The position numbers and the translations under genes were made by a program. The notes under the pieces were generated by a model that saw only the letters and a program-made list of their open reading frames with translations, ran no database searches and was not told the origin of the DNA. From an uncultured Planctomycetota bacterium (GTDB lineage: Bacteria; Planctomycetota; Planctomycetia; Isosphaerales; Isosphaeraceae), in the NCBI GenBank assembly GCA_963737655.1, contig CAVTTN010000002.1, positions 2,368,001-2,432,000 of the forward strand: a stretch of DNA of 64,000 nt. The letters run 5' to 3'. Each line of letters opens with the position of its first letter. Positions within the stretch are counted from its first letter, which is position 1. Shown here in pieces: positions 3,731 to 10,466 of the stretch.

Positions 3731-4694
3731 TCAGCCCCCGGCGACGAGCTGCCGGGCCGCCGGGGCCCGCAGGGCCTGGAGGAACCCGTCGGCGATCAGC
3801 CGGTTCATCCCCTCGGAGTAGAGCAACGGGCGGAAGAAGCCGGGATAGTGCTTGCAGACGAGGTCGCCGTCCAGGCCCGGATGGATGCTCACCCGATAGG
3901 TCGGCGGCAGGAGCGCCACCCCGTCGATCGCCGAGCACATCGCGTGGAGCGTCTGCTCGGTCACCCAGCGGTTGCCGAAGAGGGTCGGGTGGTGGAGCCA
4001 GCCATCGATCGCCTCGAAGTCGATCGTCGTCCGGCGGATCAGGGCCAGCCCGCTGTTGATCCGAGGCGGAGGGCGGACGCCGAAGGCGGCCTCCAGCTCC
4101 TCGGGCGTCATGCTGTAGGCGTCGATCGAGTCGAGGTTGTACAGGTTCGGGCTGGTCGTCGGCGAGAAATCCACGAGCTCGTCGGGCCGTCGGAAGAAGA
4201 CGATGTCCGAGTCGATCGTGAGGATGTGATCGGCCGAGGACAGGGCGTAGAAATCGAACAGCTTGAGGGTCGTCGGGTTGAGGAGGCGGTACTCCAGGCA
4301 CTTCGCCAGCCCCCTCCTCGCGAGCCTCGGCCTCGGTCCGCGACCCGGTTTCCTCCCGGGTCAGGATCGTGGCGTCGGGGAAGTGGTGCTGGAGCTTCTC
4401 GGCCTGGCCCGGCGCGAGCCCGCCGTCGTGGATGAACAGCGGGTAATCGACCCCCGAGAAGTGGTAGAAGCTCTTCAACGCCCAGATCAGGTTGACCCAG
4501 TCGCGCCTCCAGGTCAGGACGCGGATCTCGGTCGGCCCGGATCGCGAGGTGCGCATCGGAGGGGTCGGCAGGATCTGCTTCTGGACGGCCCACCGGCGAT
4601 GCGCGGCCCTCCAGCCCTCGCGGTTCCATTCCTGGAACGTCATCCAGTGCCGACGGCTCCTCAGCCAGTTCCGGACCCTCGCCCGAAGCGCCAT
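3731..4694 (-). CDS. GT-A fold glycosyltransferase-like protein (frameshift ~4326)
   Basis: N-terminal half (ALKSFYHF...IHDGGL) is in ORF 3120..4694. C-terminal half (KLFDF...TIDSDIVFF...INSGL...TEQTL) is in the frame of 3731..4174. Has a DxD motif; one extra G joins the halves. Confidence 0.7.
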
Positions 4695-4851
4695 CGACTT
4701 ACCTCCGCGCAGCCTCTCCGAACGACCGCCGGGCTGCGGGCCCGGGAAACGGCCGCTTCCGAGGATACCGAAAGAGGCCCCGGCATCGCCACCGACGTTG
4801 CCGGGAATCGCCGAGATGCCGGAGAGACGCGGCCGGGGGCCGGGCCGGTCC

Positions 4852-5624
4852 TCAGTGGGACGGCGCCTCGACGGCCGGGGCGTCCTCGGACGAGACGTCC
4901 CCGGTCAGCAACGCCCGCTTGACCTCCTGGATCGCCTGGGTGACCTTGATGTCCCGGGGGCAGGCGCTGGTGCAGTTGAAGACGGTCCGGCACCGCCAGA
5001 CGCCCTCGGCGTCGTTGAGGATCTCCAGGCGCTCGGCCGCCGCCCGGTCCCTCGAATCGAAGATGAACCGATGGGCGTTGACGATCGCCGCCGGCCCCAC
5101 GTACTTCCGGTCCCCCCAGAACGGCGGGCACGCCGTGGTGCAGCAGGCGCACAGGATGCACTTGGTCGTGTCGTCGAACCGCGCCCGGTCGGCCGGCGAC
5201 TGGAGCCTCTCGGTCGTCGGCGCCGGGTCGTCGTTGACGAGGAACGGCATGACCGACTTGTAATGGTCGAAGAACGGCTTCATGTCGACGATCAAATCCT
5301 TGATCACCGGCAGGCCGAGGATCGGCTCCAGGGTCAGGGTGTCGGACTTCAGGCTCTTGACCAGGACCTTGCACGCCAGGGCGTTCACCCCGTTGATCCT
5401 CATGGCGTCGGAGCCGCAGACGCCGTGGCGCAGGAGCGCCGCAGCGCCAGCGACTCGTCATGATACCACTTGACCTTCTGGACGACGTCCAGGACGCGGT
5501 CCAGGGGGTCGGCCTCGACGTCATACTGCTCCCACCTCGGGGCGTCGTCCGCCTCGGGGTTGTAGCGCTTGACCTTGACGGTCAGCTTGCGGACGTGGGA
5601 TTCGGTGGTTGCGGCAGTGGCCAT
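4852..5624 (-). CDS. sdhB: Succinate dehydrogenase iron-sulfur subunit (frameshift ~5427)
   Basis: RRSC(AH)GVCGSDAMRING, CILCACCTTACP and CRTVFNCTSACP Cys clusters. One missing C splits ORFs 5400..5624 and 4852..5403. Confidence 0.95.
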
Positions 5625-5664
5625 GATAGGTCGCGGACCCCGAAAGGGCGATCGGGCGGGAAAA

Positions 5665-5937
5665 TCAACGCGTTCTCTCGGACCATTCGGCGGGCGTGTC
5701 GGTGTAGACGAACTCGACGCGGGACTGATCGTCGGGGCTCATCGCGTCGAGCAGGTGGCCCCAGACTCGGGCCTGCCTCTGCCCCTCGTATTGCCCCTCG
5801 AAGCTCCGGGAGATGACCCGGCCGAAGTACTTGTAACCGCCGAAGTCGGCGGGGTAGACCCGGATCTCGGGCGCGTCGAGGCCCAGGCCCCGGAGGCTCT
5901 CCCGGAATCGCGTCTCGAACGGGTCGTTCGATGTCAT
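5665..5937 (-). CDS. BolA/IbaG-like small protein
   Basis: VISRSFEG...RQARVWGHL and C-terminal TPAEW resemble BolA/IbaG motifs. ATGA overlap with the upstream HEPN gene. Confidence 0.6.
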   Translation of the reverse strand: MTSNDPFETRFRESLRGLGLDAPEIRVYPADFGGYKYFGRVISRSFEGQYEGQRQARVWGHLLDAMSPDDQSRVEFVYTDTPAEWSERTR

Positions 5938-6560
5938 CGGGCACCTCCTTCCGGGCCTGGCGGCCCGCCGGAGACTTGCGAGATCAGGGACTCGCCAAAT
6001 TGCTTCGCGGCCGAGAACCAGTCGAGAACGGTCTGCGAATCGATGGGTCGAAGGCCATCGTCGGTCGCGGGAGCCTCGTCACGGTCGGCGCGATGAGCGA
6101 TCAAGTGCCGTCTCTGGATCATCGACGCGAGCTGCCCCCTGAGTTCATGGTCCGCGATCTCGTCCATGCGAACCCCCATCTTATCCAGGAGCGTCGCGAC
6201 CTGGCCTACGTTATTGTACGTCGCTCCTTCAAGGGAGGCGGCGACCGACTTATTAATGAAGTCGGCTATGGAAAGATCGCTATGGTCGCGGAGGACGGCG
6301 AGCGTGAATTTGGATCGCTCGGGAGTGAACGGATCGATCCCGGCCAGGACGTCTCGCCTGGCGTTCGGCAGTTTCAGCCCCGCCAGGCTCCTCAGGAGGT
6401 GTTCGAGGGTCGAGTGGAGAAGTACTACCGATAGCCGGAGGAGATCAGCCGCTAACACCCGAGCGTGCTCGCCCGGCACGACCCCGACCGGCAGGCTCAG
6501 GAGGATGAGGTTCCGGACGCGGTCCAGGTTCGACCGAAAGTGGGTCGCGACAGGTTCCAT
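5934..6560 (-). CDS. HEPN-domain protein (putative RNase)
   Basis: N-terminal helix DLLRLSVVLLHSTLEHLLR and C-terminal RRHLIAH (RxxxxH). ATG overlaps the sdhA stop (TGATG). Visibly more AT-rich than its neighbours. Confidence 0.75.
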   Translation of the reverse strand: MEPVATHFRSNLDRVRNLILLSLPVGVVPGEHARVLAADLLRLSVVLLHSTLEHLLRSLAGLKLPNARRDVLAGIDPFTPERSKFTLAVLRDHSDLSIADFINKSVAASLEGATYNNVGQVATLLDKMGVRMDEIADHELRGQLASMIQRRHLIAHRADRDEAPATDDGLRPIDSQTVLDWFSAAKQFGESLISQVSGGPPGPEGGAR

Positions 6561-8407
6561 CAATACTTCCGGATCTCCAGCGGATACTTCGTCGTGACCT
6601 CCCCGTTTTTCTCCACGGTGATCACGTCCACGTCTTTATACTCGACGCGGGTCCCGCCTTCGCCTTCCTTGTAGACCAGCGAGTGCTTGAAGAAGTCGCG
6701 GTCGTTGCGGTCGGGGAAGTCTTCTCGCGAGTGGGCGCCTCGGGACTCCTTCCTCGCCAGGGCCGAGGCCACCGTCGCCTCGGCGACGTCGAGCAGGCAG
6801 CCGAGCTCGAGGACTTCCAGGAGGCCCGTGTTGAACACGCTCCCCTTGTCCTGGACGCCCACCGTCTGGTACTGCCTCTTGAGCATGGCGATGTCGTCGC
6901 GGGCCCGGGTCAGGGTCTCCTCGGTCCGGTAGACCCCGCAGTCGTCCATCATGGTCCTCTGCATCTCGTCGCGGAGCTTGACCCAGGGGAAGCTCCGGGG
7001 GCGGGCGAGCAGCGCCTTGATCGCCGCCTCGGTCGGCGCCTCGGGCTTCGGCGGGATCGGCTCGAACGGCTTGTCGAGGGCGTATCTCGCCATGTCCCGG
7101 CCCGAGCGGCGGCCGTAGACGATCAGGTCCACCAGGCTGTTCGTCCCCAGCCGGTTCGCGCCGTGGACGCTCACGCAGGCCGATTCGCCGGCCGAGTACA
7201 GCCCGGGGACGATCGAATGGCTGGCGTCGCGGATCACCCGGCCGTGGACGTCCGTCGGGATGCCGCCCATCCCGTAGTGGGCCGTCGGCTGGATCGGCAT
7301 CGGCTCCTTGATCGGGTCCACGCCGAGGTACGTCCGGGCGAACTCGATGATGTCCGGCAGCCGTTTCTCGACCCAGAGGCTATCGACGGTCTGCCCGGTG
7401 GGGCTGGTGCCGTACTTGTTGATCGTCTCGGCGCGGATGTCCAGGTAGACGTAGTCCTTGCCGCCGATGCCCCGGCCGGCGCGGACTTCCTGGTAGATCG
7501 ACCGCGAGCAGACGTCCCGGGAGGCCAGGTCCTTGAGGTTCGGGGCGTAGCGCTCCATGAAGCGCTCGCCCTTGTCGTTGAACATGATCCCGCCGTCCCC
7601 CCGGCAGGCCTCGGAGAGCAAGATGCCCAGCCGATAGATGCCCGTGGGGTGGAACTGGTAGAACTCCAGGTCTTCCAGCGGCAATCCGTGGCGATAGGCG
7701 ATCGCCGGGCCGTCGCCCGTCAGGGCGTAGGCGTTGGAGCTGACCTTGAACATCCGGCCGAACCCGCCGGTGGCGATCAACACGCTCTTGGCGTGGAACA
7801 CGTGCAATTCGCCGGTGGCGATCTCGATCGCGACGACCCCCCGGCACTCCCCGTCGACCATGATCAGGTCGAGCATGTGGAATTCGTCGAAGAACGTGAC
7901 GCCCTGCTTGATGCACTGCTGATACAGCGTCTGCAAGATCATGTGGCCGGTGCGGTCGGCGGCGTGGCAGGCCCTCATCACCGGGATTCTGGGTCGGGCG
8001 TTGGGCGTGCCGGGCTTGGCCGAGGGGTCGTAATCGGGGTTGGGCTTGGTGTGGCCGCCGAACCGCCTCTGGGAGATCCGGCCGTCGGCCGTGCGGTCGA
8101 ACGGCAGGCCCATGTGCTCGAGGTCATAGATGCATTCGATGGCCTCTCGGCAGAGGATCTCCGCCGGGGTCTGATCGACGAGGAAGTCGCCGCCCTTGAT
8201 GGTGTCGTAGGCGTGGTTCTCCCACGAGTCGCTCTCCAGGTTGGACAGGGCGGCGGCGATCCCGCCCTGGGCGGCCCCGGTGTGCGACCTCGTCGGGTAC
8301 AGCTTGCTGACGACGGCGGTGCCGGCCTTCTTGCTGGCCTCCAGGGCCGCCATCAGCCCCGCCCCGCCCGAACCGACGATGATGCAATCGAAGCGATGAT
8401 AGTTCAT
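6560..8407 (-). CDS. sdhA: Succinate dehydrogenase flavoprotein subunit
   Basis: GSGGAG FAD motif, [41 protein letters not shown]. Start placed at ATG 8407; the ORF track extends to GTG 8425. Confidence 0.97.
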
Positions 8408-8469
8408 GTTGGGATTTTCACACACGCGGACGGCCCCGAGACGGGCGGACCCGGGGCGGACAGGTCACG

Positions 8470-9618
8470 TCACTTCCCGGGCGCCGGCAGGGGGTTCGCC
8501 CCGCGGACCGGCTGCGGCTTCGGCGGGGGGCCGGGGTTAGGCTCGGCCGGCGACTGGTTCTTCAACGGATGCTTGGCGATGTAGGCGTCGTCCTTCTGGA
8601 ACATGAAGATCGCGTACGACCCCACGCCCGTCAGGCCGATCATCCCGAGCCAGATCAGCGTCGAGGCGATCACCCGCCGGGACGGCCGGGCGATGTATTC
8701 GTAGAGGACCTGGCGGAGCCCGTTGAACCCGTGCCCCAGCGCCAGGACGATCAGCGAGAAGTCCCAGATCCGCCACAGGGCCCCGGTCCCGGGCGCCGCC
8801 CAGCGGCTGGCCACGAAGGCGTAGTTGATCGTCTCCACATTGTTCAAGATATGCATGATGAACAGGTGGCCGACCGCCAGGAAGATCAGGAGCAAGCCCG
8901 AGATCCGCATCAGGTACCAGGCGCGGAGCTCGAAGCCGGACGACGGCCGGACCCGCGTCCCGGCCGGCGGCACCAGCCCGATCACGCTGATCCAGACGAA
9001 CCCGACGCCGGCCATCGCCAGCATCAGGGCGACGGTCCTCGGCGCCCTCAAAGGCGATCCGGCGGGCCGATCGGCCTGCGCCACCGGGGCGGGCGGGGTC
9101 GCGGGCGCCTCGGCGGCGGCGTTCGGCCGGATGTCGGTCTGGATGTCCTGCATGTGACCGGGGGGCTGCGTCAACGGGTACAGCACGAACAGGGTCGTCG
9201 GCACCATGATCAGGACGAAGACCCACTGGACCCCTCGGAGGATCTCCTTGCGGTAGAGCGTCCCCCGGTTCCAGAAGTCGTACAAGATCACCCCGGTGCC
9301 GTTGACCGCGTGGAAGACCACCGAGGCGATCAACCCGAGCTCGGCCACGCGGAACCCCCAGCGGAGGGCGACGTAATATTTGCCGTCGAACCAGATCCCG
9401 CCGTAGAGCGCCACGGTGTGGTCGTACCACTCGGGCACGACGACGACGAAGAACGTGTCCAGGACGTGGAAGAACAGGAAGAAGAGGATGCCCAGGCCGG
9501 TCAGTCGATGGATCAACCACGACCACTGGCCGATGCCTCCCCCGTAGCGGAGGCCGTCGGCCAGGCGGGCGAAGAGGCCGGGGCGGTAGGCCCTCGGCGA
9601 GCGGGGCGAAGGTGCCAT
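8470..9618 (-). CDS. sdhC/sdhD: Fused succinate dehydrogenase cytochrome b556 (SdhC) and hydrophobic anchor (SdhD)
   Basis: SdhC motifs (WLIHRLTG, FHVLDT, FHAVNG) followed in frame by SdhD motifs (MRISG, GHL, HGFNGLR). Located at the head of the sdh operon. Confidence 0.85.
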   Translation of the reverse strand: MAPSPRSPRAYRPGLFARLADGLRYGGGIGQWSWLIHRLTGLGILFFLFFHVLDTFFVVVVPEWYDHTVALYGGIWFDGKYYVALRWGFRVAELGLIASVVFHAVNGTGVILYDFWNRGTLYRKEILRGVQWVFVLIMVPTTLFVLYPLTQPPGHMQDIQTDIRPNAAAEAPATPPAPVAQADRPAGSPLRAPRTVALMLAMAGVGFVWISVIGLVPPAGTRVRPSSGFELRAWYLMRISGLLLIFLAVGHLFIMHILNNVETINYAFVASRWAAPGTGALWRIWDFSLIVLALGHGFNGLRQVLYEYIARPSRRVIASTLIWLGMIGLTGVGSYAIFMFQKDDAYIAKHPLKNQSPAEPNPGPPPKPQPVRGANPLPAPGK

Positions 9619-9807
9619 GAAAGTCGGCGTCTCGTGGGCGGGTTCGGGGCGGGGCGGGACGTCGGCCGCATCCGCCCGACGGCGAATCGGCCCGTCCTCT
9701 CGGTCTGGAGGCCCCCGCGACACGTTTCTTGTAGAGCCGACGGGCGGGGGGGTCAAGGGGGCAGCGGCCCCGGTTCGCGAGATCGCCGGCCCGAGCGGCT
9801 CCCGCTT

Positions 9808-9898
9808 CGGGTGGCGTGCTCACGTCCTCGTGAGCATGTCTTCCCGGAGGCCGGGCGCAACCGAACCCATGCTCACGAGGACGTGAGCATGCCGCCCG
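9808..9898. repeat. REPIN-like doublet (GGGTGGC-tagged, family B)
   Basis: 31-nt inverted arms (2 mismatches), CGGGTGGCGTGCTCACGTCCTCGTGAGCATG / CATGCTCACGAGGACGTGAGCATGCCGCCCG. Each arm is itself a hairpin. Confidence 0.85.
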
Positions 9899-9899
9899 A

Positions 9900-10174
9900 T
9901 CAGCGGTCCAGCTCGATCTGGGTGGCCCGGAACTGGCCCCGGAGGTTCATCCGCCCCACGGCCGCCACCGGGCTCCCGTGGCAGAGGTTCGCGCCTAGGT
10001 CTTCCAGCCAGCCCGAATCCGGGACGAGCGAGGAATCCGCCTCGACGATCAGCAGGTCGCCGGGGCGTCCTCGGGCGCGACCTGGAGGACCAGCCGGCGG
10101 GCGTCCCGGATCGGGCCCGAGGGCTCGACCCAGGAATCGACCAGGAAGCCCCTGACGCTCGTGACCGTATCCAT
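9900..10174 (-). CDS. Small OB-fold/SSB-like hypothetical protein (frameshift ~10063)
   Basis: Manual join across a C-run gives MDTVTSVRGFLVDSWVEPSGPIRDARRLVLQVAPEDAP(G)DLLIVEADSSLVPDSGWLEDLGANLCHGSPVAAVGRMNLRGQFRATQIELDR. GAGG SD before the ATG. Confidence 0.5.
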
Positions 10175-10466
10175 GTCCTCGCCCTCGTCCGCCATCGGCA
10201 ACGTCCCGCCGCCGGCCCCCGGGAGGGCCAATGCATCCATCATGGCAGTCCCGGCGAAAATATCAAGAGGGAATCCGCCGGATCGCGGCAACCCGCGCCC
10301 TCGCGAGGCGTTCCGTCCCGACATTCCGACCCCCGAACCGGCCTCCCTCGGCCGGACGATTCCTCTCTTGCACGCAAAATAGCGACTGTCGGGAGGTTGA
10401 GCAAGCGTTCCGGACCGACCCCCCGGGCCGTTCCCGTCTCGGCGGACGATTCTCCCGAAGGGTCTG

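Follow-up and report, generated by a model that had tools for sequence, protein, structure and literature searches.

A gene for a HEPN-domain protein followed by a gene for a small BolA-like protein without the BolA histidines is, on sequence evidence, a real and general gene pair that is common in planctomycetes. It forms a conserved, patchily distributed two-gene unit of small proteins, as in type II toxin-antitoxin systems. One copy lies inside the succinate dehydrogenase (sdh) operon of an uncultured member of the Isosphaeraceae, in the window analyzed here, a stretch of 64,000 nucleotides. The pair probably works as a toxin-antitoxin module of a type II-like kind: binding of a BolA-fold partner would keep the predicted HEPN RNase inactive. 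The gene family is the interesting part of this locus; there is nothing unusual about its place in the sdh operon. Few toxins and immune effectors are as common as HEPN RNases. To our knowledge, the brakes known for them are adenylylation by MNT, RnlB-type binders, and ligand-gated sensors. A literature search without most subscription papers retrieved no paper on a standalone HEPN and BolA-like pair. The chances are about even that such pairs form a new class of toxin-antitoxin or immune modules, an abundant one, whose HEPN protein is inhibited not by MNT but by a BolA-fold protein without Fe-S ligands, and which comprises at least four HEPN lineages barely or not linked by profiles.

All genes of the locus are on the minus strand, in the order fused sdhCD, sdhA, HEPN gene, partner gene, and sdhB. 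The first host-operon gene is a fused sdhC-sdhD membrane anchor (8470..9756), matched by PF01127 in two stretches and by TIGR02970 and TIGR02968, both below cut-off; a Pro/Ala-rich linker joins the two parts in this single ORF. It is followed by sdhA (6560..8425, TIGR01816 above cut-off), the HEPN gene (5934..6560; 208 aa, P0001), the partner gene (5665..5937; 90 aa, P0002), and sdhB, which occupies two frames (4852..5624) and has Fer2_3, Fer4, and PRK05950 matches. The original prediction described two tightly coupled genes interrupting sdhA-sdhB, and the ORFs bear this out in every detail: the TGA of sdhA overlaps the ATG of the HEPN gene, the HEPN stop and the partner start overlap in ATGA, and 40 nt separate the partner gene from sdhB. 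A GGAGG resembling a ribosome-binding site (5944..5948) lies within the end of the HEPN gene, 6 nt upstream of the partner start. The HEPN gene has no intergenic space in front of it, a search of 4600-10200 found no sigma-70-type promoter (shuffles give 0.4), and no excess of promoters or terminators was detected at the cassette. The pair presumably has no promoter of its own and would be read from the host operon. Terminal repeats and a target duplication were searched for at the cassette and not found, and neither protein has a match in PADLOC or NCBIfam. The codons of the HEPN gene are more AT-rich, as had been noticed, with a GC3 of 0.755 against 0.94 in sdhA; the values are 0.90 for the partner gene and 0.98 for the 3' part of sdhB. 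The two frames of sdhB reflect a one-base loss near 5425-5429, where eight relatives carry the extra base, and the loss is likely an assembly error. Apparent single-base frameshifts are also seen at about 11880 in a uvrA-like gene and at about 4170-4200 in a glycosyltransferase-like gene (both named by reading translations), and the three together suggest indel errors in the assembly. The one DNA sequencing run that was searched contained distant sdh pieces only.

The first of the two genes had been proposed to encode a HEPN protein, and structural modeling supports this: the 208-aa protein is, by its model, a HEPN protein with the four-helix fold, and by its family matches probably one of the RiboL-PSP type. 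Its match to PF18735 (RiboL-PSP-HEPN) has an E-value of 2.4e-5 and 24.8 bits, below the Pfam cut-off of 28.4, and the homologue L024 passes that cut-off with 36.3 bits. In the ESM Atlas, PF18735 clusters are matched at 0.97 by the relative P0003. The HEPN profile gave no match to the PDB by sequence. In a model made from the homologue alignment (pLDDT 88), all VIA matches at ranks 1-13 are HEPN-domain proteins, with Z scores of 9.4-11.6, a range that the tool grades as middling for helical bundles; the best is HepT 5yep (Z 11.6, rmsd 3.4, 131 aligned residues). Foldseek returned HepT chains with probabilities of 0.91 and 0.87, and with weak E-values. The stretch RRHLIAH (6093..6113, residues 150-156), already recognized in the original prediction, corresponds to the R-x4-H RNase motif and ends a modeled helix at 138-155. 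Twenty homologues at 32-46% identity were aligned with the protein, and R150, R151, H152, I154, and H156 are invariant in 21 of 21. The 208-aa protein is accordingly named here a predicted RNase toxin. The wider PF18735 family is also present in other phyla. In PMC3710099, as far as its available text goes, RiboL-PSP-HEPN domains are described as fused to endoRNase L-PSP or placed in an operon with ParB, whereas the protein studied here stands alone with a BolA-fold partner; that paper never mentions BolA in its main text.

The 90-aa protein is BolA-like by sequence profile and lacks all three BolA histidines. A word-index search with this protein alone found only itself, and a four-sequence profile from neighboring genomes reached 553 clusters at 50% identity. 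A 133-row profile of the family matched BolA proteins in the PDB (best E 5.5e-7). In hhalign, the partner profile matched 17 canonical BolAs at 96.6% (E 4.9e-10) and 30 MNTs at 0.3%, in keeping with the BolA/IbaG-like assignment first made from motifs. PF01722, the BolA/IbaG(YrbA) family, is matched by 18 of the 133 members at E 0.01 or better, and no Pfam MNT match was obtained among the 133. The partner shares with BolA/IbaG the fold and an S-x-x-F-x-G core (PMC7538681, in its available text), but it has R-Q-x-x-V-W in place of R-H, and its neighbor is a HEPN gene, not Grx4. One conserved histidine had been reported missing; the comparison extends this to all three, which are present in 17 of 17 canonical BolAs and replaced here by K36, Q55, and R73. 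Histidine is found at the beta3 position (R73) in 2 of 133 members versus 17 of 17 canonical proteins, and at the position in the beta1-beta2 loop (K36) in 7 of 133 versus 17 of 17. Tandem double-domain partners or tandem partner genes also occur in the family (P0055, P0074, P0110, P0112, P0117, P0147, P0148, P0154; L088, L145, L148, L154).

Fold searches were less discriminating than profiles. The single-sequence model of the partner has a pLDDT of 61, and with it BolA, MNT, and other type II KH-like folds were not separated: MNT 1ylq is matched with a Z of 6.4 (rmsd 2.8, 78 aligned), BolA 1ny8 with a Z of 5.6, and MNT 7ae2_B stands at rank 4 in Foldseek. These matches leave some room for a different module, a minimal relative of HINPO. 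According to the available text of a recent preprint (10.64898/2026.10.19.760177), in HINPO a HEPN gene precedes an inactive nucleotidyltransferase (iNTase) fused to ParA, which is linked to a downstream ORC/CDC6-STAND ATPase; all four mentions of iNTase in its main text fall in the HINPO section. A search of the iNTase literature without most subscription papers found no other relevant paper. In such a minimal immune module, a dead Pol-beta/MNT-like sensor, the iNTase, would perceive a nucleotide or a phage product and activate the HEPN RNase, leading to abortive infection. The likeness, compared by description with the available text, lies in the order of the genes, with HEPN before a small alpha/beta domain that evolves fast and is catalytically dead, and in the enrichment in multicellular bacteria; the identity among relatives is 35-45% for both HEPN and partner versus 80-90% for the sdh genes. 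Against this, all four partner subfamilies are assigned by profile to BolA (86-97%) over MNT (1% or less, with 30 planctomycete MNTs), and the 20 PDB matches of the joint partner profile are all BolA-family or uncharacterized proteins, none of them MNT. The small domain stands alone here, with a downstream ParA motif in 0 of 28 phylum matches, and sdhB directly follows the partner in place of the ORC/CDC6-STAND ATPase that the preprint's available text describes. The lack of a PADLOC match and the position of the examined copies, mostly among housekeeping genes, point the same way, and this alternative is judged fairly unlikely. The BolA-fold partner may nevertheless represent the HINPO iNTase in standalone form and link the BolA and MNT folds structurally. 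A simpler idea, that the partner is a dead MNT, came from a motif and failed in the profile comparison with the 30 planctomycete MNTs; by structure, the partner may still be remotely related to the Pol-beta fold.

The pairing of the two genes, whose co-occurrence elsewhere had been proposed as a check, was followed across genomes. This HEPN subfamily occurs in 16 of 121 family genomes, at two sites only. Wherever its downstream DNA is available, which is the case for 17 places including one remnant, the partner comes next. In metagenomes, 8 of 12 partner loci show a HEPN of this subfamily upstream. The partner itself is more widespread, with profile matches in 58 of the 121 genomes (108 rows). 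With the 11 weakest matches and two fragments of a single frameshifted cassette set aside, 95 rows gave 90 His-less loci in the Isosphaeraceae, and a HEPN gene ends within 350 nt upstream in 78 of them (69 of 81 when the nine loci used to seed the profiles are removed). The 78 comprise 16 of the present HEPN type, one a remnant, and 62 from three PF05168-like groups. The remaining 12 have no HEPN there, and in a few of them HEPN sequence is present in broken form or close by. The three PF05168-like groups have no profile similarity to the present type, only some of their members reach PF05168 itself, and the R-x4-H motif is absent from their alignments. Four partner subfamilies nevertheless match four HEPN subfamilies one to one: the nearest partner relative shares the HEPN class in 77 of 77 cases, and shuffles give a mean of 22 and a maximum of 38. 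This matching speaks for co-inheritance, not for binding, because kin share labels. In a 401-genome sample of the phylum, HEPN precedes 12 of 13 His-less loci, or 7 of 8 when the five that are seed loci or the query are set aside. One protein of 296 aa, seen in 5 contigs, is a HEPN-partner fusion; longer fusions of the partner were searched for and not found, which is weak evidence. Loss is polar: the HEPN gene is deleted in frame or broken while the partner stays intact (L065, L070; L058, L020; P0134). L024, a close HEPN relative in another family, has no partner. Two further candidates were set aside, L022 from Streptomyces, which proved to be a chance TetR match, and L044, which is a remnant. 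The source genome carries a second pair on the minus strand (G000:C2:6438634-6439349, L231 1190-1905), with a PF05168-like HEPN (E 3.5e-9) and a partner (profile E 3e-30), directly after a gene read from its translation as galactokinase-like.

The same surveys bear on a metal-related role. The partner could be a working BolA that delivers or senses Fe-S for SdhB, with the HEPN gene incidental, a function that the BolA fold would suit; moreover, this subfamily adjoins Fe-S or redox genes at both of its sites, one of which has a glutaredoxin-like neighbor. The Fe-S ligands of BolA are, in the available text of PMC7538681, an invariant histidine in beta3 and a histidine or cysteine in the beta1-beta2 loop. 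Those histidines are gone here, and P0002 has no cysteine at all. Canonical BolAs, used as a control, adjoin Grx4 in 13 of 17 loci and HEPN in none of 17 (13 of 15 and none of 15 in a partly overlapping phylum sample, in which L249 counts as canonical). Beside the His-less loci of the phylum sample, Grx4 was found in 0 of 13, and these members adjoin HEPN instead. Neither Grx4 nor a canonical BolA was found in the source genome (G000, 88% complete). An Fe-S delivery role is thus very unlikely.

An RNase control of the sdh transcript, cutting between sdhA and sdhB, had been offered as the other reading of the locus. Its appeal is in the location within the operon, the overlap with the sdhA stop, and the recurrence of the cassette at this junction in 9 family genomes (site 1). 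The junction was measurable in 55 of the 58 family genomes with this sdhB, and whether relatives keep sdhA and sdhB contiguous has a clear answer: 39 junctions span at most 200 nt, 3 span 200-500 nt, and 13 exceed that length. The 13 long junctions hold this cassette in 8 cases, Uma2 genes in 4, and a RES gene in 1; Uma2 is confirmed by Pfam in three, and two tandem copies in G479 are recognized by likeness. The cassette also lies between a molybdopterin oxidoreductase gene and a glutaredoxin-like gene in 8 genomes (site 2; L045-L049, L053, L058, L061, L036-L039, L065, L070). One genome has both sites occupied, and site 2 appears empty in the source genome. Related pairs adjoin ahcY-, ribA-, galK-, and moaA-like genes, as named from their translations. 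The empty junctions, the Uma2 and RES genes there in other genomes, and the second site indicate that the link with sdh is incidental. The transcript-regulator reading is largely refuted by these comparisons and is hardly credible; the sdhA-sdhB junction is, to judge from these genomes, a landing site for toxin-like accessory genes and not a target. The junctions concerned include those of G529, G527, G477, G479, G451, G458, and G526 (L217, L205, L225, L212, L228, L222, L218). At the G458 junction, only the last third of a partner gene is present (E 1.7e-8), and one junction has an apparent Uma2 tail. Of the 121 family genomes, 58 have this sdhB type, and none of the 14 in genus g17 does, which suggests that the family likely uses two sdh types.

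Eleven of the 39 rows in a tree of sdhB DNA carry the cassette; their placement takes 8 changes, and their grouping as one clade is rejected (AU p 0.0003). The clustering by site in the cassette trees (0 of 500 shuffles, weak branch supports) fits long residence rather than frequent hopping. Either the cassette was inserted early and then lost many times, or recombination in the flanking DNA may have spread it. No relative of the cassette was found in IMG/VR or PLSDB. Such site-linked lineages, with many losses and no mobility hallmarks, could also be expected of a non-addictive and mostly non-toxic accessory module, in which a HEPN-partner complex with a mild RNA-binding or stress role persists by drift in operon junctions. 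Three HEPN groups without R-x4-H agree with this idea, and the available text of PMC2701414 leaves the same option open for MNT-HEPN. The catalytic motif, however, is invariant in the present HEPN subfamily, HEPN is lost before its partner, and the junction is also used by Uma2 and RES genes, so that a non-toxic module is quite unlikely.

The toxin-antitoxin reading is likely in view of the folds, the R-x4-H motif, the tight coupling, the co-occurrence, the subfamily matching, and the dispensability at sdh. The presence of other toxin-like genes, Uma2 and RES, at the same junction also counts in its favor. The cassette of this kind first proposed for the housekeeping operon has thereby gained genomic context, from co-occurrence, subfamily matching, the contiguous sdhA-sdhB of relatives, and the order of decay, and its function is still a predicted one. 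Under this reading, the BolA-fold partner without metal ligands would bind HEPN directly and keep the RNase inactive. The missing nucleotidyltransferase motif of the partner and the missing Rx4HxY tyrosine of HEPN suggest neutralization by binding, not by AMPylation. The partner family has a mean charge of -7.7 and HEPN one of +2.6; since most relatives combine an acidic partner with a basic HEPN, the partner would plausibly shield the side of the HEPN dimer that binds RNA. Once stress or phage shut-off halts synthesis, the partner would decay and free the HEPN protein, which would then cut RNA and arrest growth. Precedents exist for both the position and the mechanism: an MNT-HEPN pair is inserted in a lysine operon in one Thermus strain only (PMC2701414, available text), and RnlA is held by the binding of RnlB (PMC3710099, available text).

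Several observations count against the toxin-antitoxin reading. The HEPN gene comes first in the pair, whereas the available text of PMC3710099 places MNT on the 5' side of nearly all MNT-HEPN dyads. R-x4-H is lacking in three of the four HEPN groups that have a partner, as in Class II HEPNs, whose toxicity is unvalidated in the available text of PMC7641770. The partnerless L024, the presence of the wider PF18735 family in other phyla, the clustering by site, and the lack of mobility hallmarks belong here too. The source copy, finally, may be weakened, considering that it forms a long branch in the cassette tree, no longer has the GxG[HQ]H stretch that follows the motif, and has pair charges of -4 and -2, with no charge contrast.

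One of the closest known systems, besides HINPO, is HEPN-MNT (HepT/MntA) type VII, which likewise joins a HEPN-fold toxin and a small alpha/beta partner in a two-gene unit (PMC7641770, available text), and which shares the patchy distribution and the insertion into housekeeping operons (PMC2701414, available text). HepT is also the best fold match of the present protein, and the distant HEPN groups are PF05168-like. In type VII, MntA adenylylates the tyrosine of Rx4HxY in the toxin, as the available text of PMC7641770 describes. Here, in contrast, that tyrosine is found in 0 of 21 homologues, with no Tyr two residues past the motif histidine. The MNT motif GSx10DxD is found in 0 of 77 census partners and in 1 of 133 family members, against 30 of 30 control MNTs with a relaxed motif. 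Judged by their sequences, the pair thus lacks both defining motifs of the type VII systems. RnlAB, a type II system active against T4, resembles the mechanism proposed here: its HEPN RNase is kept inactive by the binding of an unstable partner and released when host synthesis stops (PMC3710099, available text). It differs in belonging to another HEPN family and in its larger, multi-domain toxin, and no PADLOC match links it to the present pair.

If the proposed mechanism is true, a BolA-fold inhibitor would be a new brake on HEPN RNases and would give a fold known from iron-sulfur handling a task unrelated to metals; a function could also be assigned to the partner family, whose clusters, at least 553 in number, are now unnamed or labeled IbaG/BolA. 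The pair also offers a direct test of the toxicity of PF05168-like HEPNs without R-x4-H, as well as a test of the role of the HINPO iNTase, and the four matched subfamilies provide ready cognate and non-cognate controls.

Some loci have unusual surroundings. In L040, L041, and L043, a His-less partner without HEPN lies on contigs of 29% GC, among short unknown genes that look phage-like and have no Pfam matches; the partner there could be a virus-borne antitoxin mimic. In L035 (653-2713), the pair follows an ORF without a Pfam match that seems, by a motif, to resemble type I-G Cas8/Csx17, and it precedes a tRNA-like stretch.
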